Below are positions 9,353 to 48,540 of a stretch of DNA of 64,000 bases, piece after piece; the first letter of the stretch is position 1; each line of letters opens with the position of its first letter. Source of the stretch: an uncultured Lachnospiraceae bacterium. GTDB lineage: Bacteria; Bacillota; Clostridia; Lachnospirales; Lachnospiraceae. The stretch spans positions 1,242 through 65,241 of the forward strand of contig CALAEX010000066.1 of assembly GCA_937891165.1 (NCBI GenBank), read 5' to 3'. Made by a program: the position numbers and the translations under genes. The notes below the pieces were generated by a model. The model saw only the letters and a list, made by a program, of their open reading frames with translations. It did no database searches and was not told where the DNA came from.

Positions 9353-10631
9353 AGCACAAAATGAGTCCTTAGTTTAGAAGTAAATATACTATTTAATTTA
9401 TTTATAAACGAATAAATAAATTAATATAAATTTACTGGTGAGGACCTATATAGTAATATATAGAAAATAAACCTTCTTAATTGCTGGAAACTCTCGATAT
9501 GTTGTTAGTACAGTAAAGTGTGACAATCTAACAAATAGAGACAATCAGCAGCCAAGACCAATTATGTAAATTTGTATTAAAATAAATTAGGAGATAAATC
9601 AATATGAATTTACGAGAAAAATTATATGAAATTGGTATGACATATGATGAATTAGATAGAAATTCATTACCATATGAAGTATTTATTCCTATGGATACAT
9701 CATTATACCCCATCATACCAAAGAATAAATTTATGATAAGTAATAAAGGAAGAATTTATGATTGTCATAAAAAAGAATTTAAGAAAATTTCATTACCGAA
9801 AAATGAAGATACTAGCGTATCATACTATACAGTAAATATTGGAGATGAAAAATATTTAGTCCACCGATTAATGCTGTCATCGTTCGAACACCTCGGTGAT
9901 ATCGAATTAATGAAGACACTCCATGTTGATCATAAAGATGGTAATAAACACAATAATGAACTGTATAATTTACGCTGGGCTACAAATAAAGAAAACACAA
10001 TTTATGCAAGAGATTTAGGATTATTAAATCCTAGACGTGGTGAAACACATCCATGTGCTACTATAACTGAGAAGCAAGCACGGGAAATATGTGAATTACT
10101 ATCTACAGGAAAATATTCAAAATCTCAAATTTCTAAAATGCTAAATGTACCATACGATGCTGTTTGTGGTATTTATATGGGTGTATCATGGGTTTGGATT
10201 TCGAAAGATTATAATGTTCAAAATAAACTAATAAAAGGATCTGGTTATCCAAAAGTTTTTACATTTGATCAATTACATATGATATGTAAATATTTTTCTG
10301 AAAATAAAAAACCCGATGATATGAGTGTTAGAAAATATTGTTTGAATACATTACATAGTATAGGTTATGATGAAAATATTATAACAGAGGGTGTATTGAA
10401 TGGTGTTCGAAGTATATATAATAAAAAACGGTATATCGAAATAACTTCTCAATATAATTGGTAAGGTTCAACGACTATCGAAAGGGTAGCTTAGTAAAAT
10501 AAGTGAGTAACCGAGTAGAGTAGGATACATATATCCGAAATGGAAGGCTCCTTATAGTTTATAATGAATTATAAGGATGAAGATATAGTCTGAACTATAT
10601 AGAGATATATAGATTAACATAATTAACCAGG
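9353..10631 (+). mobile_element. group I intron 1 (IA2-like) carrying an HNH homing endonuclease gene
   Basis: 5' core cttaattgctggaaactc...gacaatcagcagccaagacc (9476-9558). 3' core gttcaacGACTATcgaaa (P7 5' at 10473-10478) and agatATAGTCtga (P7 3' at 10585-10590). Candidate P1: exon tttattt (9346-9352) with gaataaa (9410-9416). Boundaries are accurate only to within a few nt. Confidence 0.8.
9604..10464 (+). CDS. intron-encoded HNH homing endonuclease
   Basis: HVDHKDGNKHNNELYNLRWATNKEN is an HNH motif. AGGAG RBS. Lies entirely inside intron 1. Confidence 0.85.
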   Translation: MNLREKLYEIGMTYDELDRNSLPYEVFIPMDTSLYPIIPKNKFMISNKGRIYDCHKKEFKKISLPKNEDTSVSYYTVNIGDEKYLVHRLMLSSFEHLGDIELMKTLHVDHKDGNKHNNELYNLRWATNKENTIYARDLGLLNPRRGETHPCATITEKQAREICELLSTGKYSKSQISKMLNVPYDAVCGIYMGVSWVWISKDYNVQNKLIKGSGYPKVFTFDQLHMICKYFSENKKPDDMSVRKYCLNTLHSIGYDENIITEGVLNGVRSIYNKKRYIEITSQYNW

Positions 10632-11058
10632 AGGAAAAAGTCCGCAGTTCAACGCAAGTGTATTGCTGAAATTTATTGCAGTCGGTAGTGCTAAATATGA
10701 ATTAGAAGATGATGGTTTTGATGGATTTGGTGTTAAGGTTATGATTATTAAATCCAGAGGAAATCAGGCAGGTAGATTTGTAAATTTAATTTACGATAAA
10801 GTAAGAGGTATTGACCCCATTCGTTCAAGTATTGCATTTGCAAAAGAACTTGGACTTACAGGGGGAAATAAAAATAGTTTTTATTTCAACTCTCATAAAG
10901 AAGAGAAATTCTCGTTGAAGAATGTAAATCAGGAGTTTAGAGAAAGAAGACATTTATTCAAGATTATGTTTGATAATATCAGACCAGTACTTGAAAGTAA
11001 ATTATCTATGTTAACTCCGGATGAATTAGAACCAGTTGATGAAGCTATGGATTACTAA
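10632..11058 (+). CDS. RecA-family recombinase, exon 2 of 2
   Basis: The frame is open from 10627. GKSPQFNASVLLKF aligns with RecA GGNALKFYASVRL. The joined ORF 8499..9352+10632..11058 is 1281 nt and in frame. The track Met at 10663 is an artefact. Confidence 0.7.
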
Positions 11059-11087
11059 GATTTTTGTAAAAGAATCTAAATTTTAGT

Positions 11088-11097
11088 AATATATTAT
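11088..11097 (+). promoter_or_regulatory. promoter-like motif AATATATTAT
   Basis: Motif family member upstream of 11196. Confidence 0.35.
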
Positions 11098-11195
11098 TAT
11101 ATTGAATATATGTGAGTAGAGAATGATTATCTCTACTCGCATTATTTATTTTTATAAACTATTTATTATATTCTAAAGAAAGGAGGTCTTAAATT

Positions 11196-12233
11196 ATGCT
11201 AAGACCAAAGTATCCCAATTTTGGGGAAAGTAAAATTTTTGTGAAAAGAGGTATTGTAAGGGGGATTACACTTCCAGATTATGTAGGGAATATGAAGGAG
11301 AGACCAGTTTTAATTATGTCTGATCCGACAGAACTTCCAGTAGGGTTTCAAAAATCCAGTGTTCAAGTATATGGAATAAGTACAAGTATGTATAGTTTAT
11401 TAGATATTCCAATTATTTTATTTTCCAATTTTTCAAGTCAATTATCTTTTATTTGTATGATGGATATTTTTACGATTGATACAAAGAGAGATACACTCCC
11501 TAATCTGGTAATTCAATCAGTTTGTCCAGATTATATTTATGATATCGTAGTTAGAGTAAGAGAATTGATGCAGGAAAATACTTCAGTATCATTTGATACT
11601 GCTCTTAAAATGGTAAATGAATACCGTGTGCAGTTTATGCAGACTCATAGAATTAAGAAATTTAGAATAAGAATTACTTGCAATGAATACTATGAAATCT
11701 GTTATACTGGCGAAGCTACATATAAAATTTGTAGTGATGCAGACATTATTGAAGGTATAGAATATTTTGAATCTGGGGAAGAGATTGATTTTACCATTCC
11801 AGTAAATGCATTGGTGAGTACGGTAGAAGTTGAAAAGAAGAATGACACAATTCATTCTTATGCATTTAATATGAAGTCACCATATGTTTATGTAGGAGAG
11901 AAAGAAACCGAACTTCGAAAGAAAATGGGGGTAAATCAGATATTCTTAGAAAAGAACCCAGTTCCTATTTTAGAAGATGGTATTGTCCCAAAAATATTTA
12001 AACAGGTTACAGAACTTAGTGATGGCGACTTAATTAAATTTATGCAAGAATTTACTAAAGGATATTCCGAAATGGAATTCTCTCAAAGAACTGCTATTGG
12101 TTGGAAGTTCATTACCAACCGTTATATTGCTTGTGAATTTGAAATGATTCGTAGAGGTCTTGATGAAAGGATTGTATCTTATCCATTTGGAAAGATTCAA
12201 TACAAGAATCAGTTATTTTATAATAATAAATAA
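11196..12233 (+). CDS. hypothetical protein (345 aa)
   Basis: Long ORF with an AGGAGG RBS. Confidence 0.75.
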   Translation: MLRPKYPNFGESKIFVKRGIVRGITLPDYVGNMKERPVLIMSDPTELPVGFQKSSVQVYGISTSMYSLLDIPIILFSNFSSQLSFICMMDIFTIDTKRDTLPNLVIQSVCPDYIYDIVVRVRELMQENTSVSFDTALKMVNEYRVQFMQTHRIKKFRIRITCNEYYEICYTGEATYKICSDADIIEGIEYFESGEEIDFTIPVNALVSTVEVEKKNDTIHSYAFNMKSPYVYVGEKETELRKKMGVNQIFLEKNPVPILEDGIVPKIFKQVTELSDGDLIKFMQEFTKGYSEMEFSQRTAIGWKFITNRYIACEFEMIRRGLDERIVSYPFGKIQYKNQLFYNNK

Positions 12234-12245
12234 ACTATTTGCTTA

Positions 12246-12278
12246 GAAAGAGATGTTTTCACATCTCTTTCTTTTTTC
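12246..12278 (+). terminator. intrinsic terminator
   Basis: gaaagagatgt-tttc-acatctctttc followed by T6. Confidence 0.8.
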
Positions 12279-12334
12279 CTTTTTTATGTTCTCACTCACA
12301 TTTCTTTAAATTTTATCCAAATATGTAATGAAGT

Positions 12335-12344
12335 AATATATTAT
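12335..12344 (+). promoter_or_regulatory. promoter-like motif AATATATTAT
   Basis: Lies 31 nt upstream of the ATG at 12375. Confidence 0.4.
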
Positions 12345-12374
12345 TTATTTGGAATAAAATGAAAGGAGACTAAC

Positions 12375-13622
12375 ATGAAAGAGAAGTACAATCTTAAAGA
12401 TGCCCTAAGAGCGTGTGACCTAGAATATCTGGATGACCGTTCTATAGAGGGTAAAGGAATGCTTACAACACCGCAGTATATCAATAGTATGCGAAGTGTT
12501 ATGTTTGCATCGCATTTAAACCAGTTTAAGAATATGGTACAACCAGATTTTCCTCAGTTCTTTACTGGTGGTGAAAATGTGGTTGGTAAGTATTCGGACG
12601 GTTATTTGAAACTTAACGAATCTACTGTATATAGAAAAATTGTTAAGTTTGAAGGATTAGTAGAAAATCCGACCGTATATGTTTTGTTTGTGTATAACAA
12701 AGTAAAGAAACGATTTGAAGTTATTAGACGAAAACCGAATGAAGACTTAATTGAAGTATTTGGATATAAATACGATAATACAGTCATTGACTCCTTTAAA
12801 GAAGGAGATGAAATTAGTGAAGACACTATAGCATTTAAGTCTACTTCCTATGATGAAAGTATGAACTATTCGTATGGGCGAGATGTCATCACACAGTTAT
12901 CTTTTGAACCGTTTACATCAGAAGATGCAGCTATCGTATCAGAAGAAATTCAAGACCTTCTTAGAAATGTAGAGGTTGAAGAAAATATTGCTACATTGAA
13001 TGAGAATGATTTTCCTCTTAATATTTATGGAGACGACTTAGAGTATAAAACATTTCCAGATATCGGGGAATTTTCTAAAGGTATCATTATGGCTACTAGA
13101 AGAAAATTTAATAATCAGGTCTTGTTTGATTTTAAAGAAGATATGCTTAGTAAAGTAACAGACACCGATACTAGATATTATCTGAATGGTAAAGTTGTTG
13201 ATATTGAGATTTATTGTAATAACGAGGATTTACAGGATAACTCATTTTATCATCAGATTTATAACTATTGGTGTTATCAGAATGCTTACTATAAAGATAT
13301 TAAAAGAACTTGTGAAGAGATTATGAATTCAGGAGAAGACTACACAAGGGATATTGATTATCTTTATAAACAAGCATGTTACATGTTAGACCTTAAAAAG
13401 AAATGGAAAGAAAAAGACAATGCTTTCTCCAATGTGCAAGTACATATCCTTGTGGAGAGAGAAATACCATTAGCAGTAGGACAGAAAATTTCGGGTCGTT
13501 ATGGAAATAAATCGGTAATATCTGATATTCGTAAGAAAGAAGATATGCCATTCTATTATGATGCTAATGGTAATAAAGTTCATGTACAGCTTATACTATC
13601 AGTGCTAGCTATTATAAACCGT
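12375..13622 (+). CDS. RNA polymerase beta subunit C-terminal half, exon 1 of 4
   Basis: SMRSVMFASHLNQ (compare NRALMGANMQRQ). GQKISGRYGNKSVISDI (compare GDKxAGRHGNKGVxS). Ends at ...LAIINR (compare PSRMN). 5' splice site: P1 aaaccgT (13616-13622) with Gcggttt (13633-13639). Confidence 0.9.
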
Positions 13623-14762
13623 AAACTGTTGTGCGGTTTTAAAACCTCTTTAATTGCTGGGAACTCTTTAATTAGACAATCAGCAGCCAAGACCTTAAAA
13701 TTATAGAAATAAATAATAAAAGGAGTGATCGATATAAAAAATATCATAGATATGTTATATCATGATGAAAAATGGAGAAAGATAAGATATAAAAATATTT
13801 GTAAAGATATATACGAAATTAGTTCATACGGTCGTGTAAGAAAAATTTCAAATAAAAGAATCTTATCATCTGCAATGGCTCCAAATGGTTACTTACGTAT
13901 AAACTTAATAATAGATGAATTTATAGAAAATAGTAATGAACATAAAAGGAATGCATTTTCAATTCATGTTTTAGTATTTACACATTTTTGTGATAAAAAT
14001 GATGTTGAAACATATTTGATTGGTAATTTATTTGAACGGAGATATGTTGTTAATCATAAAGATGGTAATAAGACAAATAATTATTATGATAATCTTGAAT
14101 TAATGACATATTCGGAAAATAATAAACATGCTTCAAAATTAGGGTTGATGCCTAAAGGAGAAAATAAACCAAATTCTCCAAGTTGGGTTACAAATGAATT
14201 AGTTGAAAAAATTTGTAAAATGCTAGATAAGGGCGAACCTAATTGGCGTATTATTCAGACACTTGAATTGCCAAATACGAAATATACAAATACATTGATA
14301 TCTCATATTTATTCAAAACAAGGTTGGGAATTTATATCAGAAAAATATAATTTCTATAATTCAAATTCTAAGTTTAAACGAAGTACTACATATTCATTAG
14401 AAATGATTACTTATATATGTAAACTATTGGAACATGGATATTCTAATAGAGATATAGCAGATATAGTCTGTAATAAATTCGAAATGGGTAAAGATAAAAT
14501 ACATGCTATACGAATAATCGTATCACGTATTAGAAATAAACAAAAATATATAGATATTAGTAAAAACTATAATTTTTAAGGTAAGGTTCAACGACTATCG
14601 AACACATAGCTTGAGAGAAATGCTTAAGTGAATAAGTAAGTAGAGTAGGAGAAATCCGAAACGGGAGGTAATGCATATCTGGTAATAGGATATGCTTTAA
14701 AGATATAGTCTGAACTATATAGGAATATATAGAAGTATTTATATACGTTAACAAAAGCAATG
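13623..14762 (+). mobile_element. group I intron 2 (IA2-like, subtype A) carrying an HNH homing endonuclease gene
   Basis: P1 as above. P10: ctgttgt (13626-13632) with 3' exon acaacag (14763-14769), 7 bp. Core: taaaacctctttaattgctgggaactctttaattagacaatcagcagcc, gttcaacGACTATcgaa, ccgaaacgggagg, agatATAGTCtga. The omega G is 14762. Confidence 0.9.
13725..14579 (+). CDS. intron-encoded HNH homing endonuclease
   Basis: VVNHKDGNKTNNYYDNLELMTYSENNKHA is an HNH motif. N-terminus has EKWRKI...YEISSYGRVRK. GTG start after AAAGGAG. Confidence 0.85.
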   Translation: MIDIKNIIDMLYHDEKWRKIRYKNICKDIYEISSYGRVRKISNKRILSSAMAPNGYLRINLIIDEFIENSNEHKRNAFSIHVLVFTHFCDKNDVETYLIGNLFERRYVVNHKDGNKTNNYYDNLELMTYSENNKHASKLGLMPKGENKPNSPSWVTNELVEKICKMLDKGEPNWRIIQTLELPNTKYTNTLISHIYSKQGWEFISEKYNFYNSNSKFKRSTTYSLEMITYICKLLEHGYSNRDIADIVCNKFEMGKDKIHAIRIIVSRIRNKQKYIDISKNYNF

Positions 14763-15287: not shown

Positions 15288-15511
15288 GACCGAATTTGCC
15301 GAAGTAAAACTTCTTTAATTGCTGGGAACTCTTTAATTAGACAATCAGCAGCGAAGCTTAGAAATAAGAACGTTCAACGACTAGCTCTAGTAGCGTAGGA
15401 CTTAATAAAAACTCTTTAAGTTCGAAACAAGAAGCATTTAATTATGAAGATATAGTCTGATACTTATAGGAATATAAGAGAGTAAATTCGTAAGAATTAT
15501 AAACGTAATAG
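15288..15511 (+). mobile_element. group I intron 3 (subtype B, no ORF)
   Basis: P1: ttcggT (15282-15287) with Gccgaa (15298-15303). P10: gaattt (15292-15297) with 3' exon gaattc (15512-15517). Core: gttcaacGACTAgct...tagcgtagga...ttcgaaa...gaagatATAGTCtgatac. Close paralog of intron 8. Confidence 0.88.
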
Positions 15512-15526
15512 GAATTCGAAACGCTT
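15512..15526 (+). CDS. RNA polymerase beta C-half, 15-nt micro-exon (EFETL); 3' end tentative
   Basis: RFG|EFE restores the universal beta RFGEME motif. The last 6 nt, acgctt, pair with gggcgt (15534-15539) as P1 of intron 4. Confidence 0.6.
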
Positions 15527-15772
15527 AGAAATTGGGCGTCATACACAGAGATGTGTATTGCTTAAACCTCTTTAATTGCTGGAACCTCTTTAAGTAGACA
15601 ATCAGCAGCGAAGTTCGAAAGGAAACGTTCAACGACTATCGAAAGACTATTGAAAAATAGAATCGAGTAGAGTAGGAGAAATCCGAAACGGGAGGTATCT
15701 GTAAAAGATAAAGATATAGTCTGGCTATATATGAAAATATATAGGTTAATTAGCAATTTCTGTATTGCAATG
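15527..15772 (+). mobile_element. group I intron 4 (subtype A, no ORF)
   Basis: Full core (ttaaacctctttaattgctggaacc..gacaatcagcagcg..gttcaacGACTATcgaaag..ccgaaacgggagg..agatATAGTCtgg). Candidate P1 at 15521-15526/15534-15539, P2 hairpin atacac/gtgtat (15541-15558). 3' end gcaatG|cag matches intron 2 (gcaatG|aca). The 5' boundary is less certain than the 3' boundary. Confidence 0.75.
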
Positions 15773-23261: not shown

Positions 23262-23334
23262 GAAATATTAGATTAGGGGCAAATCGCAGGGTCCAACTCA
23301 CTCTGAATCGCGGGTTCGAATCCCGCATATTTTT
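23262..23334 (+). tRNA. tRNA-like gene with a non-canonical anticodon loop
   Basis: 7-bp acceptor stem (23262-68/23327-33), D arm gatt/aatc with a GGGG loop, T arm gcggg-TTCGAAT-cccgc (23310-26). The anticodon stem agggt/actct encloses CCAACTC, which has no U33 and a pyrimidine at position 37. No CCA is encoded. Confidence 0.5.
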
Positions 23335-23404
23335 TCCCTATTTTCAGTGAAAAACCGACCTGGAAACATTTTTGTAAGACTTCTAGATGAAAGGAAGTGA
23401 CAAA

Positions 23405-26400
23405 ATGGCGGGTAACGAAATCAAGGTTTCAAATACCTATAAGCAGAAAAACGGAGCTAAGCTAAATGCGCAATGGCTTAGAAACGCTACAAGATCATTA
23501 GGTTCGAACTCAATGTCTGTATTACAAGACATTAGCCCTAATATCTATAATGCTGCAGAAAGTGCAGTTGCTGTTACAAAAGCAATCCGTCGTACCAAAG
23601 TATCTTCTAATACTATAGCAAGAGCTATGGATAACAATAAGTATGTGAAGATGGGTAAGCGTGCTCTTAGTAACGCAATGAAAGATTTAAAAAGTGGAAA
23701 CTTCAATAATACAACACGAGGTAGTGGTGGTTCTGAAGATGTAGATACGACATATCATTTTGGTGATGATAGTGAATCTTCAGGTAGTGAAGGTCAAATC
23801 CACACAACGATAAACTTTAATCCAGAAGGGTTAAATAATATCAATAACTCAATTGTGCAACAAACAAAATACCAGATGCAAGCATCTCAGGCAAATATTG
23901 ATACTATGGTTGCAACATCGAGTGCAATGATGGCAATGAACCAGAGAAATGCAGAAGCATCTTTAAATATGTTAAATAATATTAATAATAGCTTACAGGC
24001 TATTATTAAATATAATAACGAAAATATGACAAAATTCATCACTTCTAGTATGACATACTATGAGATGATGGGTAAAGCATACACATCAACTGAAAAGAAA
24101 AGAGATGAAAAAATAACAGGAACGGATCTTGTTGATAAGAGGGGTAACTTATCCAAGGGTAAATTATCAGCGATATTAAAACAAAATCTAAAAGCTGCAT
24201 ATCAAGAATCTCAGCTTGGTGGTATGCTTGAAATGGTGGATAACTTCTCTGATGAAATCGTGAAGAATCCATTATCTTTTGTAACAAAACATCTGATTGA
24301 AAAATCTATTCCGAAAGCATTAAAAGAATCTACAAAGCAGTTAGATAAAACGTTTGGTAACTTTGTTACTGAAATGCTGCTTCGCACTTCTAAGAAACTT
24401 ATGGATAACCCTGGAGAACTTGGATTAAAAGGATTCCTCGGTAGAGTATTAAATATCGATGTAGAGCGTACAAAAGAGTTTAAATTTGCAGGTAAAATCA
24501 ATACCGATGCTGCTAAATTCGACAAAATAACGCATCATGCTATATCTGCAGAGATACCTAAATATCTTAGGGAAAGTACGGCATACTTGAGACAACTTGT
24601 TATGTTAAATGGAGGAGACCCCGAGAGAGCTCTTAAAGGTTCTCAAATATTTAACAGAGATACTGGTTCTTATGAACGTTACGGTGATTTTGGTAAATAC
24701 CTTTTAGGTTCTATCAATACTGCTGTAACTAGAAGTATGCGTGAATCCGATTTTGGTAAATCTTTAGATAAAGTTGGACGTAGTAATCTTGTAAAAGATA
24801 GCCAGAAAGATGCTTACGATAAATTATTAGACAACTTCTTTATTGCTTTAGAAAGAGAAGAAGGAAATGTTGACATCTCTAAACGTGGTGAAGATAGTGA
24901 TGTTTCTAGAATCATGGCTAGTTTGTCTGGAGATAAAGGATTAAAACGAATTCTAGAAGAATCTGTTTATGCTTCCTTTGCTAATGGACGTGCTGGTATG
25001 GGTGTTAACGCAGCAAGACTTCATGCAAAGTCTGCTCGTAATAAACGTATTTCTGAATTAGAAGAAACTAATTTAGCAGAATTATCTGGGCTGGTAAAAA
25101 CTGACCAGACGATTGATGATGCGTTAGCTTCTGTTCTTTATGGAACAGACGGCAAAACTACAAGAACTCAAAGTTACACTCCAACCTCTATGCTTGGTAG
25201 ACTATCTACCATCGAAAGATTATTGGATAGAGGTATCAACGTTCAAGTAGTTGGCAACGAAGGATTCGAATCTATTCATAAAGGTGTTCGAGGTCCTAAA
25301 ACTGATAGAAAAAATGACGCTACTCCAAGTAATCGTCCAACAGAAGGTGATGCTTCTGATATTTCAGCTGAAGATTTGGCTAAAGGTATTAATGATGCTA
25401 TGGGTGATGTAGCCTCTACTGATAATAGCGGTAAAGGAGGATTTATCATCAATGCTCAAAACCATATCGGTAATATTATGCATCACATCGTTCGTGGTGA
25501 TACTAGTGCTATTTATGCTGAAATGGGTGCTATGTTTGGTTCTGGACTTATGAGTCTTGGACAAAAAATGAACGATTCTGTTTTAACTCCAATGAAGAAA
25601 TTTATCTTTGGAGAAAAGGATGGAAAAGAATTCTCTATTACTGGTAAAGTAAAAGAGATGTTTGGTAATTTAAAATCCGATATGGCTGAGTTTGTTCTTG
25701 GACCTAAAGGAGAAGATGGAAAACGTGATGGAAAGAAAGCTACCGTTATGGGATTTTTACATGAAGGTATGGAATCCATGGCGAAATCTCTCTTTGGTGA
25801 AGAGAAATCTTTCGATGAGATTAAAGAACAGATTCGACAGAAAGTACAAAAAAATTCTGAAACTGGATTAAAAGGTGCAATCATTGGTGGTGGTCTTGGA
25901 CTTGCTAGTGGAGGTATATTAGGTACTTTAGTGGGTGGTCCTTTAACTGGAGCATTCCTCGGAACTGCTACAGCAATTGCTTCCAAATCAAAAGGATTCC
26001 AGAAATTCGTTTTTGGTAATGTGATTGATGATGAAGGTAATGTTGTTGAAAAGACTGGTAAAGGATTAATTTCGGATGCAACTCAGACTTTCTTTAAAGA
26101 CCATAAATCTGATATCGTAGGAGCTGCTGGTATTGGTGCTGTTGGAGGCATGTTAACTGGTGGTGGTTTACTTGGAACTATGGTTGGTGGTCCGCTTGCT
26201 GGAGCATTACTTGGTTCTGCAGTAGGAATTGCTAAGAATTCCAAAACATTCCAAAAGTTTGTATTTGGTGAAGAAGTTACTGATGAAAAAACTGGTCAAA
26301 AGAAAAAGATTGGTGGTATTTTAAGTGCCTTCAATAGAGCATTCAGTGATGCAAATCCACAGAACAAAAGACCAGGACGTGAATTAGTCGCTCGTGGTAC

Positions 26401-29400: not shown

Positions 29401-32266
29401 AAGACTCTTTAAATGTGAACAAGATGCTGTTGACTGGAAGATGAGATTAATCGCTTCTTCAGTTGCCGCACTTGCTGAAACAACACCTGGTACTGTAGTA
29501 GATATTATAAATGAAATTGTTGTTGCTTGTTGTAGTTATGACTTCATTTGCGACTTTGCAACATCAATATATCTTACATTATCTAACGACGAAAAAGATA
29601 AAATACTTCTTAACTCCCAGAATGCTTTAAAAACTGATTATAAAGCATACCATGAAAGTACTTTGGAAAAAGAATGGAACGCTTGGAAAACAGATGGAGT
29701 TGATGAAGATAAATCATTGACTTTGGATCAGTTTAAAGAAAAAGTTAAAACTGGCAAAATCCAAGCAGACATTATGAGCTTTGACGAATACAATGATGAT
29801 GTTAATAAGACATTCGGTGCACATGCTTGGGATGCTACTGTTGGAGTAGCAAAAGACTTTGCAAAAGCTGCATCAAATATGGGGGTTTCTAAAACAACCA
29901 CAACCAATGCTACTGTAACTGGTGCAAATACATATAAAGCTTCAAACTATACAACTGGTACTGCAACAACAAGTTCTACCACATATAGTGCGAAACCTAA
30001 TATGGGTATGGGTTATGGTGGAAGAGGTAATATACCATTTTATTCACAAAAAGACCCTAGATGGAGCATGATGCCTTATGAACAAGGTGGTTATGGCGAA
30101 ACTATGGGTAATGCAGGTTGTGGACCTGCTGCATTTGCGATGGCTGCTTCTGGAGCCGGAGCTAAAATTGACCCAGTTCAATCTGCTATGTTGATGAAAT
30201 CGGTTGGTGCTAGAGACCATACTGGAACTAACTGGAATGGAATTAACGCTGCTGCAGGAAGAATTGGACTTAACTCAGTAATGAGTAGAAACCCATCTAC
30301 ACAATTTGTAGATTCGCAGTTAGCTGCTGGTAAACCAGTAATTCTTTCTGGTCGTTCTGGTGGATATGGTGAAAATACTCCATTTACTTCACAAGGGCAT
30401 TATGTCGTAGCAACTGGTAAAGATTCCAATGGTAATTATATCATTAACGACCCTAACTATAGGGGAGGACAATCAAGACGTTATAACAAACGTGATATTA
30501 TGAGAGAAACTGGAGCCGCTTGGGGCTTTGGTGGACGCGGTTTAGCTGGTGAAGGAAACGGAGCTATAGATAGAAAAGAATACAATAAAATTGTAGAAAA
30601 AGAAAGAAATCTTGAAAAATGGATTAGTATCTGTAGAGCAGTTAAACAAATTATTGCAAACTATGGTGTAGGGTATAGTACTTCAAATCATGTAGATGTA
30701 ACACTGGATGGAAAAACCGTTAAGAACAGAACCGACTGTTCCGGATATGTTTGTACATGTCTTAACTTCTATGGTATTGATAATCCGGGTTGGATGAAGT
30801 TTACAGATATGAGTAACTCTACATTATTAAATGCTGGTTTTGCACCACAAAGATTCCAATCATTCGATGGGCTTAAAGAAGGTGATATTGTTGCCAACCC
30901 TAAACATGTAATGATTTTTGCATATACACAAAATGGAAAACGTTTCTATTATAACTGCGGAAGTGATAATAGTAACAACAGTCCAACACCAACAGATTAT
31001 ACATCATTCAACCCTACAGTTATCTGGAAACCAGGTGCTGAAGGTGCTGCTGCTATTTCTAATGTAGTAGGTGGCGAAATGGGTGATGTGAGCTATGGAG
31101 CAAATAGTGGAACAAATAGTACGACAAGTACCGGTTCTTCTGCACTTGGATTCTTTGGAAAGATTTCCACATTCTTCTCTGAACTTGGAAATAGGGCAAT
31201 TGAAGGTATCACAACTGGAAATTGGAATATGGACTGGTCTGGAGTATTTGATAGTGGAGCCACTTCTGGTGGAGCTTATACAGGTTCTTCATGGAATGGT
31301 ACATCTACAGGAATAAATCCTTCTGCAGCAAAAGGTGTTGTAACCGGTAGTGCTGATGAAAAAGAATTATTTGAGAAATTAACCAGTAGTGCTTTCGGTC
31401 TTACAAAAGCTGGAGCTTCTGGACTTATGGGTAATCTTTATGCAGAATCTGGTCTTAAACCAAATAATATGGAAAACTCATACGAATCTAAATTAGGATT
31501 AAATGACATTACCTACACCAATGCGGTAGATAATGGAAGTTATACTAACTTTGTTAATGACAGAGTTGGTTATGGATTGGCTCAGTGGACATCTGCTGGT
31601 AGAAAACAAGGATTGATTGATCTTGCTAGAAGAAAAGGTCATTCTATCTCTAGCACAGATGTACAAACAGAACACTTGATAAATGAACTTAAGTCCAGTT
31701 ATAAGAAAACATACGGCATTCTTACTACAACAAATAATGTACGTGAAGCATCCGATATAGTTCTTCATGACTTTGAAAGACCTGCAGATCAATCTGCAGC
31801 AATGGAAGAAAGACGAGCTTCTAATGGTATGGCATATTATGAAAAATATGCTAATATGTCTGATACAAATACTGATATGACAAAGAAAGATTTCATCAAT
31901 ACTATCGAAGCCGATAAGGCTACTGGTGGTTATGGGGATTCTGTTTATACAAGTATCAATAATCCTAATAAAAATACATTAAAATACCAAGAAGGTGGAC
32001 ACGGTACTGCTAACGATGAAAGTGTTATAGTTTATCTTAAACAAATCCTTCAAGTACTGGGAGAATCTTCTGATAAGTTAAATGCATTGAATTATTTGAA
32101 AAACATCAGTAATTCAGCGGGAGGTAGAGGAGGAAATGTGACTAATAATACATTTATTGGTCAAAAGAACCCATCTCCAGTAAAGCATAGTGAACCTATC
32201 CCAATTCCAAAAACAGATTCTGCTAAATATACAATCGCTCAAAAGATTGCAAGAGGTGGTTTATAA
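23405..32266 (+). CDS. giant virion-associated protein (~2953 aa) with three peptidoglycan-hydrolase-type domains, tape-measure/ejection-protein-like
   Basis: ATG at 23405 follows AAAGGAAG; the track start 23387 is in frame. Domains: C39-like peptidase (~30030-30480: YSQKDPRW..GNAGCGPAA..GHYVV), NlpC/P60-like (~30600-31000: RTDCSGYV..HVMIF), tail-lysozyme-like (~31360-31800: GLMGNLYAESGL..GLAQWT). Three Gly-zipper TM repeats lie at ~25860-26530. Confidence 0.8.
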   Translation: MAGNEIKVSNTYKQKNGAKLNAQWLRNATRSLGSNSMSVLQDISPNIYNAAESAVAVTKAIRRTKVSSNTIARAMDNNKYVKMGKRALSNAMKDLKSGNFNNTTRGSGGSEDVDTTYHFGDDSESSGSEGQIHTTINFNPEGLNNINNSIVQQTKYQMQASQANIDTMVATSSAMMAMNQRNAEASLNMLNNINNSLQAIIKYNNENMTKFITSSMTYYEMMGKAYTSTEKKRDEKITGTDLVDKRGNLSKGKLSAILKQNLKAAYQESQLGGMLEMVDNFSDEIVKNPLSFVTKHLIEKSIPKALKESTKQLDKTFGNFVTEMLLRTSKKLMDNPGELGLKGFLGRVLNIDVERTKEFKFAGKINTDAAKFDKITHHAISAEIPKYLRESTAYLRQLVMLNGGDPERALKGSQIFNRDTGSYERYGDFGKYLLGSINTAVTRSMRESDFGKSLDKVGRSNLVKDSQKDAYDKLLDNFFIALEREEGNVDISKRGEDSDVSRIMASLSGDKGLKRILEESVYASFANGRAGMGVNAARLHAKSARNKRISELEETNLAELSGLVKTDQTIDDALASVLYGTDGKTTRTQSYTPTSMLGRLSTIERLLDRGINVQVVGNEGFESIHKGVRGPKTDRKNDATPSNRPTEGDASDISAEDLAKGINDAMGDVASTDNSGKGGFIINAQNHIGNIMHHIVRGDTSAIYAEMGAMFGSGLMSLGQKMNDSVLTPMKKFIFGEKDGKEFSITGKVKEMFGNLKSDMAEFVLGPKGEDGKRDGKKATVMGFLHEGMESMAKSLFGEEKSFDEIKEQIRQKVQKNSETGLKGAIIGGGLGLASGGILGTLVGGPLTGAFLGTATAIASKSKGFQKFVFGNVIDDEGNVVEKTGKGLISDATQTFFKDHKSDIVGAAGIGAVGGMLTGGGLLGTMVGGPLAGALLGSAVGIAKNSKTFQKFVFGEEVTDEKTGQKKKIGGILSAFNRAFSDANPQNKRPGRELVARGTVGAGAGLLLSMFTPLGPIGGAALGLAGSMVASKDKFHELLFGKEEDKGKGTNEGLVNRLGAQISKTVVAPLANIAKNALMDVRDAVFDKVLSPIVDLAEPLAGMARRLYDKVEEKVSGVFDTLKSKLFNVAKGIGNLFRAGINKVLNRDSDKPSLIGGALNIISGGARKASDVMRASNAKASSKKWFDPSFRTTNEFKDKYQAMMTEWDNLSPEERQKFKSLKNFEKEYAKRAFYYGGNSRSAMRKSAEDRKKDRLERQAEQKEITNRENLITRLTGGKYSTDSEEARKAALDAYKKSRGYKRGKGMAGFDDATVQKLLSPMTAQGATVENEQLDELKEQNSKLDSLIGGVAAIISTITGAPVRLAKSGFKTFTGGIKDTINERRQSKDDHDAMMDDIMNSSRTTENWIRMEGEKAFNGNRKDFSFHISKKEYKRLKRYSKNPNSVYYQMANEILDENADPERRKRLYEDYLKGREERKQERQDARDTHVGNIRRAYRNTNDIIRGGYAIGTKNATPGVHRVGEQGVELIYFNGGERVYSNNELLNVRLVDVEPNAAKVMNTNGEQKVVLVGQNGLLATYGTTARLDAKTDNKSRIEKALKDPKSLISYDWVKSDNGDDDGGDGGDGGDDDEKKSLLDKLGEVAGNLGKALLAGGGIAALFKLLNSEKFQEFLENFGVVAERSAETVGEMNDIGGNTGGTDIPTATGNVISRLLSGYFFTDKEGNVDGIGKSLMRGSRQVMKTALFGRSFRPMDIIKHPFKTIKGIPDAISKLKHPIKNSTFYQQVNGGSKVVKGFLSGGVDEANEYVVETVSNMTRKGKGLFGNTNLIDIMKEKKPTQAADNVVDFAAERAKRGAAQKGTQKAVQEGAQKAAVEAAQKAAVETAQKTTQEGILEFCEKAIKEAMQNITQSLTERLGKTSGGKIVKALATKTDNVIKLLKKATVGPLAEFVGKKLAKLGTFVGTNAAVAATGIGVLGILAKDAIWMTCGAINSAGKGGAARLFKCEQDAVDWKMRLIASSVAALAETTPGTVVDIINEIVVACCSYDFICDFATSIYLTLSNDEKDKILLNSQNALKTDYKAYHESTLEKEWNAWKTDGVDEDKSLTLDQFKEKVKTGKIQADIMSFDEYNDDVNKTFGAHAWDATVGVAKDFAKAASNMGVSKTTTTNATVTGANTYKASNYTTGTATTSSTTYSAKPNMGMGYGGRGNIPFYSQKDPRWSMMPYEQGGYGETMGNAGCGPAAFAMAASGAGAKIDPVQSAMLMKSVGARDHTGTNWNGINAAAGRIGLNSVMSRNPSTQFVDSQLAAGKPVILSGRSGGYGENTPFTSQGHYVVATGKDSNGNYIINDPNYRGGQSRRYNKRDIMRETGAAWGFGGRGLAGEGNGAIDRKEYNKIVEKERNLEKWISICRAVKQIIANYGVGYSTSNHVDVTLDGKTVKNRTDCSGYVCTCLNFYGIDNPGWMKFTDMSNSTLLNAGFAPQRFQSFDGLKEGDIVANPKHVMIFAYTQNGKRFYYNCGSDNSNNSPTPTDYTSFNPTVIWKPGAEGAAAISNVVGGEMGDVSYGANSGTNSTTSTGSSALGFFGKISTFFSELGNRAIEGITTGNWNMDWSGVFDSGATSGGAYTGSSWNGTSTGINPSAAKGVVTGSADEKELFEKLTSSAFGLTKAGASGLMGNLYAESGLKPNNMENSYESKLGLNDITYTNAVDNGSYTNFVNDRVGYGLAQWTSAGRKQGLIDLARRKGHSISSTDVQTEHLINELKSSYKKTYGILTTTNNVREASDIVLHDFERPADQSAAMEERRASNGMAYYEKYANMSDTNTDMTKKDFINTIEADKATGGYGDSVYTSINNPNKNTLKYQEGGHGTANDESVIVYLKQILQVLGESSDKLNALNYLKNISNSAGGRGGNVTNNTFIGQKNPSPVKHSEPIPIPKTDSAKYTIAQKIARGGL

Positions 32267-35993: not shown

Positions 35994-37427
35994 TTATTCA
36001 ATTCCTCGAATTTCTCTTCTTTTCTTACCACCATTATCGGTACCATAAATTTCACTCATATTAGGAACTTTGCTCATGAGCAATGGATCGATATATGATG
36101 TACCAGTTCTTTCAGTAACAATTTCATCACTAAGTAACTGACGTTTGATATATTGTACAGATAATCCAAGACCTGGAGATTTATTATCTTCCAATGCTTT
36201 TCTTACTGTAATGATTGTATATGGTTCTAATTTAGTTCTTGTAAAATCAGGTCTATCGTATGTATTGATATCACTACGAACTAAACGGTTGATAATACAT
36301 TCTCCTGCTAAGCTAGATGCTTTGATTCCGGATTCTACCAACAACTCTACAAATCTCTGTGTTACTTCAGATATTGTCTGAGGTTCACCATCTTTTCTAT
36401 TTCTATTGAGAAGGTGCATCATAGAGTACAATGGTTTAGTCAATTCATTGTTAAGAATATCCATTTCTAAGATTTTAACAGAGTCGTCCAAATCTTTAAA
36501 TTTGATATATCCACGACTCTTACTCATAAGAGCTAATGCTTCATCAGTAATAAAGATTTCTTTACCCTCATTTTCTAATTGAATCTTATCCATTTCACCA
36601 GTTTCCATGTCAACCACATAGAAAATTCCACCGGCAATGAATGTATTATAACCATTCTGAGAGTCGAACTCATCTACTTTCTCAATTACATTTGTTGGAA
36701 TGTAAATTGCATATTTGTTGATATCTTCAACTTCATCATTTTCATCTACATTTGGATACACTTCTCCAGATGATAATGTAAAGTATTTGTCAAAGGCATC
36801 GTTGAATCGCAAAACTTCTGATTTTGTTGTAAGAAGATGTTTTGAGGAAAGAACGTTTTGCTCTAATTCTTTTGTCACTTCTTCTGATTCAAAACCTGCA
36901 GCACCAGCAGCAATATCATAATTAAGACCAGCAGTTCTACCAAAACATTTAGCACATACATGGTCTCCAAGAGCACATGTTACTGGAGAACGTAACCAAA
37001 TAGTTTCTCCAACTAAATGCTTATCTTTCTTAGCATTAAGAAGCTGCAATTCATCATCACCATCTAATTTATAGTAACGATTATTAAACTTCTTAAGAAT
37101 CTTTTTATTTGAAATATGAATTGGTAACAAATGTTTTGTATCACAGTCTGATATTGTTGTTGATAACTTAAGCGTCTTTGCTAACTGAAGAACCAGCTTA
37201 CCAAAGTTTCCTGCAAGACCCATAACTGTCTTATTTAAGATAAGAGATTTTCTTGCAGCGGAAGCATCAATATATACATAAGATGGTCTATCAAGTCCTC
37301 TAATAAGTGTAGAGTTTTCAATAGCTACTGGCATAATAACACCATCTAATGTAGGTTTTAATCCTTGGGCAATTGTAAATTCTGCGAACTGTTTCGTTAA
37401 TATTAATACGAAGTCGTTACTTTCGTA
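35994..37427 (-). CDS. RNA polymerase beta' subunit C-terminal half, exon 2 of 2
   Basis: FTIAQGLKPTLDG (compare MRGLMAKPDG). ASAARKSLILNKTVMGLAG (compare THGARKGLADTALKTANSG). RSPVTC..VCAKCFGRTAG. The track start (TTG at 37430) is the intron 3' end. Confidence 0.85.
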   Translation of the reverse strand, partial: YESNDFVLILTKQFAEFTIAQGLKPTLDGVIMPVAIENSTLIRGLDRPSYVYIDASAARKSLILNKTVMGLAGNFGKLVLQLAKTLKLSTTISDCDTKHLLPIHISNKKILKKFNNRYYKLDGDDELQLLNAKKDKHLVGETIWLRSPVTCALGDHVCAKCFGRTAGLNYDIAAGAAGFESEEVTKELEQNVLSSKHLLTTKSEVLRFNDAFDKYFTLSSGEVYPNVDENDEVEDINKYAIYIPTNVIEKVDEFDSQNGYNTFIAGGIFYVVDMETGEMDKIQLENEGKEIFITDEALALMSKSRGYIKFKDLDDSVKILEMDILNNELTKPLYSMMHLLNRNRKDGEPQTISEVTQRFVELLVESGIKASSLAGECIINRLVRSDINTYDRPDFTRTKLEPYTIITVRKALEDNKSPGLGLSVQYIKRQLLSDEIVTERTGTSYIDPLLMSKVPNMSEIYGTDNGGKKRREIRGIE

Positions 37428-37687
37428 CAAGTTATTTCTAACTTCTTTATATTCCTATAAAGACTAGACTATATCACTATCCTATTATTCATTACAAGTA
37501 ATAGGATACCTCCCATTTCGAACCCACTTGAGTTCTACTCTACTAAGTTCTTTATAAATTATTCATTTATAAATCTTTTCGATAGTCGTTGAACCATTAT
37601 TTTGGCTGCTGATTGTCCAATGAAAGAGTTTCCAGCAATTAAAGAGGTTTAAGCAGCATACATTTCTGTATGAGAGCACATTGTTTT
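37428..37687 (-). mobile_element. group I intron 9 (subtype A, no ORF)
   Basis: The - strand reads ttaaacctctttaattgctggaaactc..ggacaatcagcagcc..gttcaacGACTATcgaaaag..ttcgaaatgggagg..gtgatATAGTCtag. Candidate P1 is agcaT/Gtgct, and the P2 hairpin catac/gtatg matches the architecture of intron 4. Boundaries are inferred from frame plus P1. Confidence 0.75.
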
Positions 37688-46072: not shown

Positions 46073-46938
46073 ATGGGCAAAAAGAGAGCTGAAGTAAAAC
46101 GTCTTAATTTTGACGTAGAAGCTTATAATGATGTCATTAATGGTAGAGGGTTCTTTGTTGTAGATCCGCCAGAAGTAGATATCGATGAGACCAGAAAGAA
46201 AGCTTTGTATGGTCCGCAATCGCCATTATATGGAAGCACCTTCTCTGATGAGCAGTCCTTCCAAGAACGTTACCGTTGTAAATGCGGTGAGTTCAAAGGA
46301 ACTATCTTTGAGGGGGAAACATGTCCGAAATGTAATACAAAAATCGAATTTCGTGATGTAGACCCTTACATGACAGGATGGATTCCTCTTGGTGCTAAGA
46401 AAATTATCGCACCACATTACTACCGTATTTTACAACAAGCTATCGGTAGAGAAGTTTTCCCAGAAATTATTTTCTTGAAAATGAAAGTAACAAAGAATGG
46501 AAGACGAGAAAAATTAACGGAAGAAGAGATGAAAGAATTCGAACCTAAATCTCCATTTTATGGAATTGGGTTAGAAGAATTTAGAGAAAGATATTTTGAG
46601 ATTATTGATTATTTTAAGAAGTTAAAACCTGCAAAAGCAGAGACTTTTGACCGTCTTAGAAAAGAGGTAAACTCTGTATTTACATCTCATATTCCTGTAT
46701 ATACCACATTACTTAGACAGCAGTCAGTTACCAGTGAGAACTTCTATTTTACCGGTATTGATAAACAGATTAATACTTGTGTAAACTTAGCAAGAAACTT
46801 ACGTGATTCGGAAGAAATTGAAACACCAGTTATCTTAAATAGAATTCAGTCCAGAGCAAATGCTATTTGGGAAGCTAACTTTGAGCTTCTTAACACAAAA
46901 GATGGATTAATTCGTGATCAGTTGATTGGTGGGTCGCT
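46073..46938 (+). CDS. RNA polymerase beta' subunit N-terminal half, exon 1 of 5
   Basis: ATG follows AAAGGAG. Zn-ribbon CKCGEFKG..CPKCNTKIE (compare rpoC CxCG..CxxC). Ends ..RDQLIGGS + ct. P1: ggtcgcT (46932-46938) with Ggtgacc (46948-46954). Confidence 0.9.
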
Positions 46939-47218
46939 TAACAGTTGGGTGACCTTAAACCTATCTAACTGCGGGAACGTATTGAAAGGGATTAATTACC
47001 AAATCATATCAGTAATGAATATGATGGCAAAGAGTAACTACCTTTGGTATGGTAAAAAGATTAATCACTAATATAATCCGCAACGAAGACTCTTTCATTA
47101 GAGTAACGCTCAACGACTATCGAAAGACTATTTTTATTAAAATAGAATCGAGTAGAGTAGGAGAAATCCGAAACGGTAGGCAATCTAAATATTAGATTGA
47201 AGATATAGTCTAAATATG
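46939..47218 (+). mobile_element. group I intron 5 (subtype A variant, no ORF)
   Basis: P1 as above. P10: agttg (46943-46947) with caact (47219-47223). Core: gctcaacGACTATcgaaag..ccgaaacggtagg..gaagatATAGTCtaa. The omega G is 47218. Confidence 0.88.
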
Positions 47219-47252
47219 CAACTTTACAGCACGCAATGTCATTGTTCCCGAT
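47219..47252 (+). CDS. RNAP beta' N-half, 34-nt micro-exon (L)NFTARNVIVPD
   Basis: Restores GGSLNFTARNVIVPD (compare GKRVDYSGRSVIxxxP). The last 7 nt, tcccgaT, pair with Gtcggga (47266-47272). Confidence 0.88.
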
Positions 47253-47680
47253 TGATCAAACGTAGGTCGGGATTAAACCTCTTTAATTGCGGGAACGAAT
47301 TTTATAATAATACTTACTAAATTATGATAGTGATATTATAATGGCAATGGGTAATTCCAAAGGTATAGTAAAAAAAGTATTATTTTAATCAATCCGCAGC
47401 TAAGCTTCTTGATTTAAATATAATATAAATGGAGGTGATTTATTGAATGAATTTGAATTAAAAGTCAATTTAGAATTGTATTCATTAAATGATTTGGATT
47501 TAGAGATTTGGAAAAATATAAATCAAGAAGAAAGTTCAACGACTATCGAAAACATAGTGTAAGAGAAATACTTATATGAAGAAGTGAGTAGAGTAGGAGA
47601 AATCCGAAACGGGAGGTATTGTATATCTGGTAATAGGATATACTTTAAAGATATAGTCTAATAATAATTTATTATTATTG
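47253..47680 (+). mobile_element. group I intron 6 (subtype A) with a degenerate homing-endonuclease remnant
   Basis: P1 at 47246-47252/47266-47272. Core: ttaaacctctttaattgcgggaac..aatccgcagc..gttcaacGACTATcgaaaac..ccgaaacgggagg..agatATAGTCtaa. The omega G is 47680. Confidence 0.88.
47443..47562 (+). pseudogene. remnant of an HNH-type homing endonuclease N-terminus inside intron 6
   Basis: GGAGGTG RBS followed by a 39-codon ORF (LNEFELKVNLELYSLNDLDLEIWKNINQEE...) that runs into the P7 core. EIWKNI resembles EKWRKI in the 13725 endonuclease. Confidence 0.4.
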
Positions 47681-47999
47681 CCATCATTAAAAGATAACCA
47701 AGTAGATTTGGGTTATAGCTGTTTTTATGTAATGTTTAAATTAAAGATTATCCATTATCTTATGAAGATTCATGATATTTCATTAGCGCAGGCTAATAGT
47801 ATTTGGGAGGAAGGATATTCTTTCGATCAAAGAATTTATGAAATCATGAAAATGATTATTGAGATTGAAAAGCCATCTGTTGTAATCAACAGAAATCCCA
47901 CACTCAATTACTATTCAATCATTTTAATGGATATACGTCAGGTAAAACCTGATAAGGATTGCTATACATTAGCAGTTCCATTAAGTATATTACCTGGGT
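47681..47999 (+). CDS. RNAP beta' N-half, exon 3 of 5
   Basis: PSLKDNQVDLGYS.. (compare P.L.L.QCGLP). VVINRNPTLNYYSI (compare LLNRAPTLHRLGI). Ends ..AVPLSILPG + t. The track Met at 47678 is intron sequence. Confidence 0.9.
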
Positions 48000-48291
48000 A
48001 AACAAATCTGCAATTGCTCAGGTTAAACCTCTTTAACTGTCTGGAAGTTATCAATACATATAAGTTACTAAACTAAGTAGAAATATATTAGTGATAGTGA
48101 AAATATTTATATGTGATATAATCAGCAGCGAAGATTCTTTAAGTAGAATAACGTTCAACGACTATCGAAAAGATGTATATGTGAATAACGTATATAGAAC
48201 TTAGTAGAGTAGGAGAAATCCGAAACGGGAGGTATTAAGTATCTTGTAATGAGATATTTAGTAAAGATATAGTCTAATAAAATATTTATTG
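48000..48291 (+). mobile_element. group I intron 7 (subtype A, no ORF)
   Basis: P1: cctgggT (47993-47999) with Gctcagg (48016-48022). P10: ctgca (48008-48012) with tgcag (48296-48300). Core: ttaaacctctttaactgtctgg..aatcagcagcg..gttcaacGACTATcgaaaag..ccgaaacgggagg..agatATAGTCtaa. The omega G is 48291. Confidence 0.88.
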
Positions 48292-48308
48292 TAAATGCAG
48301 ACTTCGAT
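48292..48308 (+). CDS. RNAP beta' N-half, 17-nt micro-exon (L)NADFD
   Basis: ta aat gca gac ttc gat completes ILPG-L-NADFD. Nt 48302-48308 form P1 of intron 8. Confidence 0.9.
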
Positions 48309-48540
48309 AAACCCGAAAGTCTCTGTCGAAGTAAAACTTCTTTAATTGCTGGGAACTCTTTAAATAGACAATCAGCAGCGAAGCTCTTAATAGAGAACGT
48401 TCAACGACTAGCTTTTATAGCGTAGGATACTATAAAATCTTTTAGTATTCGAAATGGGGAGCAACGAAAGTTGAAGATATAGTCTGATACCTTTAGGAAT
48501 AAAGGAAAGTGAATTCTAGATAAGAATTGTAAACGTAACG
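48309..48540 (+). mobile_element. group I intron 8 (subtype B, no ORF)
   Basis: P1: cttcgaT (48302-48308) with Gtcgaag (48325-48331). P10: gtctct (48319-48324) with ggagac (48541-48546). Core nearly identical to intron 3. The omega G is 48540. Confidence 0.9.

Follow-up and report, generated by a model that had tools for sequence, protein, structure and literature searches.

Genes for multisubunit RNA polymerase (RNAP) that are split by introns are known from AR9 and from MarsHill-like staphylococcal jumbo phages (bioRxiv 10.1101/2020.12.14.422802; PMC12350094). For very short exons between group I introns we found two natural precedents, the 23-nt exon of Twort orf142 and the 34-nt exon of Coxiella 23S rRNA, both of which are skipped, and in Twort the skipping has been ascribed to two highly similar introns that build one large ribozyme (PMC10136302). 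Here we describe nine group I introns, I1 to I9, in a 64,000-nt stretch of contig CALAEX010000066.1 (the window, whose numbering is used for all coordinates), which comes from an uncultured AR9/PBS1-like jumbo phage. I1 interrupts a UvsX-like recombinase gene, and the other eight interrupt three subunit genes of the non-virion RNA polymerase (nvRNAP). The best explanation of our data, and one that we hold with considerable confidence, is that these are self-splicing introns similar to that of the T4 td gene (IA2-like) and members of an old phage intron family that is widely shared. As intron-rich RNAP genes have already been described in AR9-like phages, the window extends a known picture of AR9-like jumbo phages as tolerant of many self-splicing introns in their genes for RNA polymerase and DNA metabolism.

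Identity, boundaries and fold of the nine introns

The string CAACGACTAK (CAACGACTA[T/G]) occurs in nine exact copies in the window, all but one of them on the plus strand, and each copy is followed 75-115 nt later by ATATAGTCT. The Rfam group I intron model RF00028, with a gathering score of 50 bits, reaches that score at five of the nine (I4 91.2, I3 76.2, I8 74.4, I9 73.2 and I5 52.4 bits), stays below it at I7 (32.7 bits) and has no match at I1, I2 and I6, the introns with the largest insertions. We built a covariance model, R1, from the nine aligned cores (192 positions) and scanned the whole window with it on both strands, filters off. The nine sites scored 90-170 bits, the weakest having 90 bits (E=7e-20), and the scan found no further member, the next candidate having 15 bits (E=0.1). 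Given this gap, the window holds exactly nine family members, the number counted in a preliminary description of this DNA; their summed length of 4,372 nt likewise agrees with its estimate of about 4.4 kb and its end coordinate of 48540 is exact, whereas the first intron starts at 9371, 18 nt later than the 9353 given there. On the minus strand a tenth candidate (AAACGACTAT at 57484-57493, ATATAGTCT at 56966-56974) was rejected as noise (R1 9.2 bits, E=2.7). The lesson for annotation is that standard models overlook four of the nine introns, so that the exon fragments would be annotated as separate 'hypothetical' genes.

The window is distantly related to Bacillus phage AR9/PBS1, to staphylococcal jumbo phages and to Listeria phage LPJP1, with ~35% amino acid identity between its RNA polymerase beta fragment and their counterparts, and no near-identical DNA was found when both intron clusters were compared by megablast with 50,697 phage records. 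The interrupted genes were identified through PHROG and Protein Data Bank (PDB) searches. The C-half of nvRNAP beta, which hosts I2, I3 and I4, has chain C of the AR9 structure 7S00 as its best PDB match (E=3e-72); the C-half of beta', which hosts I9, matches chain D, and the N-half of beta', which hosts I5-I8, matches chain d. The order of the UvsX and beta genes is the same in the window and in AR9, in which both genes are uninterrupted.

Splice junctions were placed from three kinds of evidence, namely P1/P10 pairing, reading frame and homologues, the intron-less reference alleles coming from related uncultured jumbo phages in IMG/VR whose contigs carry L-numbers below. Splicing in silico yields open frames for UvsX and for all three RNAP genes, and the spliced RNAP proteins align without gaps across every junction with the AR9 chains d, C and D. 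At the DNA level the eight RNAP junctions are also gapless, the joined exons being aligned with L142 and L146 for I2-I4, with L128 for I5-I8 and with L124 and L126 for I9, and the I1 junction is fixed by the intron-less UvsX alleles L003 (DNA) and L143 (protein frame). All nine upstream exons end in T, a P1 of 5-7 bp with a terminal U.G can be read for each intron, and a P10 pairing is present for seven. Every site lies in a conserved motif of its host protein, as had been suggested: the L2 PGG motif of the RecA family (I1), INR|TT (I2) and RFG|EFETL|N (I3, I4) in beta, GGSL|NFTARNVIVPD|P (I5, I6) and PG|LNADFD|GD (I7, I8) in the N-half of beta', and TGIKH|KQF (I9) in its C-half.

I9 lies on the minus strand and all other introns, with their ORFs (open reading frames) and the short exons between them, on the plus strand. 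I1 (9371-10625; 1,255 nt) splits the Leu codon before PGG and has a long P1 loop, a P5 extension, an ORF of the HNH type in the P6a loop and A as its last base; its pairings as read from the sequence are GTCCTT/GAGGAC for P1 and ACCAG/CTGGT for P10, and R1 matches it at 10439-10593 (98 bits) and at 9467-9625. I2 (13623-14762; 1,140 nt), also with an HNH ORF in the P6a loop, has P1 AACCGT/GCGGTT and P10 ACAACA/TGTTGT (R1 102.9 + 50.1 bits). I3 (15288-15511; 224 nt), of subtype B, has P1 TTCGGT/GCCGAA and P10 GAATTCG/CGAATTT (137.8 bits), and I4 (15526-15753; 228 nt), of compact subtype A, has P1 ACGCT/GGCGT and P10 CAATTTCT/AGAAATTG (168.2 bits). In the N-half of beta', I5 (46939-47218; 280 nt; 113.7 bits) is of subtype A, has P5 greatly extended and lacks a P9 hairpin; I6 (47253-47680; 428 nt; 90.3 bits) has a P5 extension and, in P6a, a 12-bp stem closing a loop of 102 nt, in which a Shine-Dalgarno site and a short ORF of 39 codons (…LEIWKNI…) are found; I7 (48000-48291; 292 nt; 122-147 bits) has a P5 extension and splits the Leu codon of its motif; and I8 (48309-48540; 232 nt; 135.5 bits) is of subtype B, with P1 CTTCGAT/GTCGAAG and P10 GGAGAC/GTCTCT. 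I9 (37395-37687; 293 nt; 170.1 bits) is of compact subtype A with a long P9 tail. Its 3' junction ACG|AAACAG is gapless against L124 and L126; a 3' splice site after TTG (37428) was rejected, as it adds 11 residues that are absent from AR9, L124 and L126.

The fold was tested on 37 base pairs of P3, P4, P5, P6, P6a, P7 (the pseudoknot), P7.2 and P8. Pairing is found in 94% of the cells, and in 16 of the 37 pairs both sides have changed; none of 500 shuffles reached the observed pairing or compensatory values, and slid partners gave 36-46% paired. P7 is invariant and hence uninformative for covariation. Two hairpins, P7.1 and P7.2, can be read in each of the nine introns where the sequence passes from the 5' strand of P7 to the 3' strand of P3; P7.2 forms at the modelled columns in seven, the hairpins of subtype B lying in other columns and showing compensated changes between I3 and I8. 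Such extra P7.1/P7.2 hairpins reportedly define subgroup IA in the scheme of Michel and Westhof of 1990. We regard 'IA2-like' as a fair label, short of a formal assignment. The phage 'IA2' group is itself heterogeneous (PMC11878797).

Alignment, covariation, R1 and the comparison with td together bear out the earlier proposal of a homologous set of nine group I introns similar to td, and the T4 td strings that it gave are correct by our alignment. Its division into two subtypes stands in part. Subtype B (I3 in beta and I8 in beta', thus in different genes as stated there) is structurally distinct, lacking P2 and having distinct P7.1/P7.2 hairpins and a long shared 3' extension, but subtype A is heterogeneous, so that at least three architectures exist: the compact A of I2, I4 and I9, and of I1 with a P5 extension of its own; A with an 85-95-nt P5 extension common to I5, I6 and I7; and B. 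The peripheral elements group as I2/I6, I4/I5 and I7/I9.

Three pairs of introns are in tandem, 14 nt (I3/I4), 17 nt (I7/I8) and 34 nt (I5/I6) apart, and in each of the short exons the first bases serve as P10 of the upstream intron and the last as P1 of the downstream intron, without overlap. The 14-nt exon (15512-15525; GAATTCGAAACGCT) encodes EFET and two bases of L; it aligns without gaps with AGATTTGGAGAATTCGAAACACTGAATTTC of L142, and the spliced beta around it reads RFGEFETLNF, colinear with VRIGNMEISNL of AR9. The 34-nt exon (47219-47252) encodes (L)NFTARNVIVPD, its product being colinear with INFSARNVITP of 7S00 chain d. The 17-nt exon (48292-48308; TAAATGCAGACTTCGAT) encodes LNADFD of the Mg-binding NADFDGD motif, and the spliced beta' around it, LPGLNADFDGDILNII, is colinear with LSALSGDYDGDVLNII of AR9. 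Skipping of the 14- or 17-nt exon would shift the frame and remove a catalytic motif. Both of these tightest pairs are unlike in architecture, I3/I4 combining B with A and I7/I8 A with B; it is conceivable that unlike neighbours were favoured since they are unable to cooperate as a joint ribozyme, which may limit skipping. Lying in catalytic motifs, the three tandem pairs allow testing how adjacent ribozymes prevent exon skipping. We also observed seven R1 matches within ~2.5 kb of another IMG/VR contig (3300029847_000004, L071; 1170-3588), the first three of which are 80-90 nt apart from core to core, implying further very short exons there.

Site occupancy among relatives and possible movement between sites

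The closest relatives (72-85% amino acid identity) are without introns at most of the sites. The I1 site is occupied in L142/L160, L002, L152, L155 and no fewer than 11 loci from metagenomes and empty in L143-L146, L003 and many others; in terms of metagenomic UvsX alleles, at least 11 have an intron exactly at this site and about 25 are uninterrupted. L145 has an intron at the I4 site and L142 and L146 have none there, and the sites of I5-I9 are empty in L128, L124 and L126. This is the presence/absence polymorphism of mobile (homing) introns, and relatives in which a site is empty, or holds the same intron or another member of the family, allow homing to be tested against ectopic transposition.

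Two contigs show how occupancy has changed. In L145 (3300029305_005547) UvsX and both halves of beta' are without introns, and exactly at the I4 site lies a 1,202-nt intron (11786-12987) with a 310-aa HNH/NUMOD4-like ORF. P7.1, P7.2 and P8 of this intron are like those of I1 and unlike those of I4, which suggests an independent invasion or a replacement at the site; the idea that I4 is an ORF-deleted orthologue of the L145 intron is unsupported for the same reason. In L142 (3300031555_004728) the I1 orthologue is present, beta is without introns, and the N-half of beta' has two introns at other positions, TAR|N and near residue 393.

Elsewhere introns sit close to the sites of the window. In L137 one family member lies 7 nt away from the I1 site and another 3 nt away from that of I3, and beta has three more. 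In the NADFDGD motif with its preceding Leu codon there are four insertion points within about 20 nt, namely those of I7, L031, L132 and I8, the L031 insertion (4080-4400) lying inside the Phe codon and that of L132 (6231-6660) at NAD|FD. R1 has no match at the L132 insertion and RF00028 only a weak one (34 bits), which marks a more distant group I intron, and at least two ribozyme types are involved at this hot spot. The contigs L133-L136 are broken near these insertion points.

A further pair comes from a single sample: the near-identical stretches L002 (3480-4720) and L003 (4684-4760) differ by the UvsX intron of L002 and by two silent changes in the 9 nt that follow the site (CTT CCA GGC versus CT|C CCA GGG). 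The changes look like a co-conversion tract or like changes that confer resistance to an endonuclease.

Two of the nine introns still encode a putative enzyme of this kind. The gene in I1 (9604-10464; 286 aa) matches Pfam HNH_3 with 37.2 bits (E=2.2e-9; cut-off 24.8) and NUMOD4 with 18.8 bits, under the cut-off, and the I-HmuI-like gene in I2 (13725-14579; 284 aa) exceeds the cut-offs for both HNH_3 (33.8 bits) and NUMOD4 (30.3 bits) and matches I-HmuI (PDB 1U3E, E=4.3e-6). The two proteins are 27% identical and are putative homing endonucleases by their domains. Domain searches and tblastn agree with the claim that intact HNH genes are confined to introns 1 and 2, the tblastn of the window finding no other HNH-like sequence. 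The further claim that I6 holds an HNH remnant is plausible, in view of the ribosome-binding site and of EIWKNI, which resembles the N-terminal DEIWKPI of the L145 ORF, but it is not statistically demonstrable: local DNA alignment of the I6 loop with the I1 and I2 ORF regions gave no signal, with scores of 14 and 18 against shuffle means of 15.9 and 15.5 (sd 2). Nor does it follow that most copies must spread without an endonuclease of their own. The I4 site in L145 holds an ORF-containing member of the family, and loss of the ORF after fixation explains the ORF-less copies equally well.

Much of the above is what independent homing alone would leave behind, that is, separate arrivals from co-infecting relatives by means of an own or free-standing endonuclease and no movement between sites. 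The variable occupancy among relatives, the different, HNH-carrying intron at the I4 site of L145, the repeated finding of introns exactly at the I1 site and the co-conversion-like changes beside the L002 intron all speak for it. As an account of the whole family we nevertheless think it unlikely, if well short of negligible. Related introns only 3-7 nt apart within the same motifs of different phages are not predicted by strict site-specific homing, and the target sequences are related as well. For each insertion site we took the 12 surrounding bases of the spliced messenger RNA, compared them between introns and set them against a core alignment from which the guide sequence had been left out. 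The targets of I4 and I5 match at 9 of 12 positions (CGCT|CAAYTT) and encode TLNF in beta and SLNF in beta', that is, in different genes; those of I3 and I8 match at 8 of 12 (TTCGRT|G), and the I8 guide GUCGAA could pair with both TTCGAT and TTCGGT through G.U wobble. Over the 36 pairs, introns with similar targets tend to have similar cores (Mantel r=0.345, p=0.025), a result that comes from nine introns only and is driven by two pairs. Under homing alone, such similarity would have to be coincidence or a preference shared by the endonucleases. The part of the preliminary description that had the introns spread with retargeting of the guide finds partial support in the target correlation, and the recent intragenomic origin that it attached to this spread does not. 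The similarity of targets fits guide-directed reverse splicing or an endonuclease of relaxed specificity.

The terminal A of I1

The 3'-terminal G of group I introns (omega G) is regarded as universal and as necessary for exon ligation. Eight of the nine introns end in G and I1 ends in A. The 3' end of I1 reads ...GATTAACATAATTA|ACCAGGAGG (10612-10631), and all junctions that retain the invariant PGG leave A as the final base of the intron. The omega-A junction scores 114; canonical U/G junctions, the best of which scores 88, were rejected, as they lose residues of PGG. P1 and P10 are contiguous on the guide, which is consistent with the omega-A junction, and the guanosine-binding region in P7 is the same as in G-terminated relatives.

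I1 has company in this respect. Its orthologue in L142 (8367-8390) has the same 14-nt tail GATTAACATAATTA, the two introns being 70% identical overall. The UvsX intron of L002 (4686-4705) is different from I1 and also ends in A, its boundaries being exact owing to the near-identical intron-less L003. The beta' intron of L131 (about 7040-7060) ends in A too, and inspection of its exons showed no usable in-frame G, the canonical alternatives producing a stop codon or a deletion of seven conserved residues. Among metagenomic UvsX introns at or near the I1 site, 14 of 15 end in G.

We put forward tentatively, and at somewhat less than even chances, that I1, its L142 orthologue, the L002 UvsX intron and the L131 beta' intron ligate their exons with a 3'-terminal A and constitute a conserved natural exception to omega G, in ribozymes with a guanosine-binding site in P7 that looks quite standard. 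A literature search on natural introns without omega G found nothing relevant. For A-terminated introns three options remain: ligation with terminal A, use of a downstream G that yields a UvsX without Pro-Gly, or dependence on help. If I1 splices, it bears on how the site of the second splicing step is selected.

Some copies, I1 above all, could on the other hand be splicing-defective relics that leave the host gene inactive or its protein altered, for instance by use of the G six bases downstream, which would remove Pro-Gly of PGG. The missing terminal G of I1 and the in-frame G that the window, L142 and L002 all have 6 nt downstream are as such a reading would have them. We consider it distinctly doubtful: the UvsX exons of the window and L142 are open and 72-78% identical, the 14-nt tail GATTAACATAATTA is unchanged in L142 as against 70% identity across the whole intron, the HNH ORF is intact in both phages, PGG is invariant in all intron-less alleles of the reference panel, and the L131 intron, A-terminated as well, has no workable canonical alternative on inspection.

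Age of the family and its place among known systems

The family reaches far beyond the window. At least 120 IMG/VR stretches share the P4-P6 motif; these external introns were sampled by an exact pattern derived from the window, and 100 sources were scanned with R1. They score up to 170 bits, equal to the best of the window, which runs counter to a family specific to one genome. Over parts of the core, 70-86% identity is reached by cultured phages of Vibrio, Pseudomonas, Bacillus, Aeromonas and Escherichia. Within the window the closest pairs over model-aligned columns are I3/I8 (83.5%), I2/I6 (83%) and I4/I9 (81%), and external neighbours equal them (L031 and I8 83.5%, the L137 UvsX intron and I1 83.5%, L066 and I9 81%). 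I3 and I8, described before as nearly identical and the product of recent intragenomic transposition, are 82-83.5% identical, and the intron of L031, from an unrelated contig, is as close to I8; many compensated changes in P6a, P7.2 and P9 show that they are not fresh copies. I1 and its L142 orthologue agree in architecture and each keep their orthologous HNH ORF intact; they are 70% identical and their flanking exons 72-73%, indicating that the intron diverged in step with its host gene and has been inherited vertically since the two phages split.

A recent expansion inside this phage genome, in which one or two founders were copied with retargeting of the guide and I3/I8 are the freshest copies, is therefore very improbable: I3/I8, I2/I6 and I4/I9 are indeed mutually best or joint-best matches, the targets of I3/I8 and I4/I5 are similar and the I8 guide could fit both subtype B targets by wobble, but identities are only 78-83.5% with many compensated helix changes, introns of unrelated contigs are as close (L031 to I8, L137 UvsX to I1), I1 has co-diverged with its gene, and subtype B occurs also in ribonucleotide-reductase-like genes of the unrelated, higher-GC contigs L034 and L036.

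Based on our data we propose that the nine introns stem from a large, old and widely shared phage family and not from a burst within this phage genome. Each folds into a P3-P8 catalytic core with the IA-type P7.1/P7.2 insert, its internal guide pairing with the 5-7 bases at the end of the upstream exon (P1, which has U.G at the cut) and, in seven of the nine, also with the first bases of the downstream exon (P10), and would excise itself from the messenger RNA to leave an uninterrupted frame across a catalytic motif. The introns were presumably acquired at different times, probably by homing through HNH nicking endonucleases of the I-HmuI kind, genes for which are still present in I1 and I2, and by occasional moves to new sites that resemble the old target (I4/I5, I3/I8). 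Most copies would later have lost the endonuclease gene, and would persist because splicing is clean and because it would be lethal to lose an intron imprecisely from a catalytic motif.

Several points weigh against this account. The splicing of the nine introns is itself deduced from their sequences; P10 is weak or absent in I6 and I9, and the splicing of I1 cannot be assumed to be canonical because the intron ends in A. The link between target and core depends, as said, on two pairs of introns, and the analysis of neighbours is incomplete, given that relatives were sampled with a pattern taken from the window. Ectopic movement may have gone by reverse splicing or by an endonuclease, and a jump may have taken place in this genome or elsewhere.

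Two observations from elsewhere in the window may be added. A tRNA (23262-23334; Rfam 45.7 bits) lies directly upstream of a 2,959-aa ORF (23387-32266). At 7336-7410 both strands of a ~73-nt stretch give weak matches to the Rfam MIR7994 microRNA-precursor model (E 0.24 and 0.33). This suggests a long hairpin that is almost a perfect palindrome, probably a terminator, unless the match is due to chance.

As to known systems, the introns of T4 td and nrdB (IA2) share with the window family the P7 strings AACGACUAUC and GAUAUAGUCUG, GAGUAG..CGAAAC between P7 and P3', and P7.1/P7.2, and they too interrupt conserved motifs of nucleic-acid enzymes. The td ORF sits in the P6a loop, as do those of I1 and I2. 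On R1 the two halves score 32.9 + 19.9 bits for td and 31.2 + 25.7 bits for nrdB (E 3e-6 to 4e-3), compared with 90-170 bits for the window family, so that both are detectable yet distant relatives. The td enzyme, I-TevI, is of the GIY-YIG type, whereas those of the window are HNH. The latter share the HNH_3 and NUMOD4 architecture with I-HmuI, I-HmuII, I-BasI and I-TwoI (phages SPO1, SP82, Bastille and Twort), which are likewise encoded inside group I introns of Firmicute-type phages. The I-HmuI family has 174 aa, and the putative nicking enzymes of the window are longer (284-286 aa), with extra C-terminal repeats, and have UvsX and RNAP beta as putative targets rather than DNA polymerase or NrdE.

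The locus is unusual in its 14- and 17-nt exons between unlike introns, in the several insertions per catalytic motif and in the terminal A of I1. Twort orf142, with three group I introns, and Coxiella resemble it in that tandem introns flank a tiny exon supplying both P10 and P1 (PMC10136302), but the exons of the window, at 14 and 17 nt, are shorter, and introns 2 and 3 of Twort are highly similar whereas the tight pairs of the window mix B and A. AR9/PBS1 and the MarsHill-like phages share multiple introns in multisubunit RNAP genes and belong with the window to the AR9-like clade. The intron in beta' of the AR9 virion RNA polymerase is of the same ribozyme family (R1 111 bits), and in the annotation of AR9 g145 three pieces are joined, the homing endonucleases in its introns being VSR-like and Hef-like and those of the window HNH/NUMOD4. 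AR9 UvsX (g086) and the C-half of nvRNAP beta (g089) have no introns where the window has four, and, unlike AR9, the window carries four introns in one 1.45-kb coding sequence, that of the N-half of beta', with exons of 34 and 17 nt between them.

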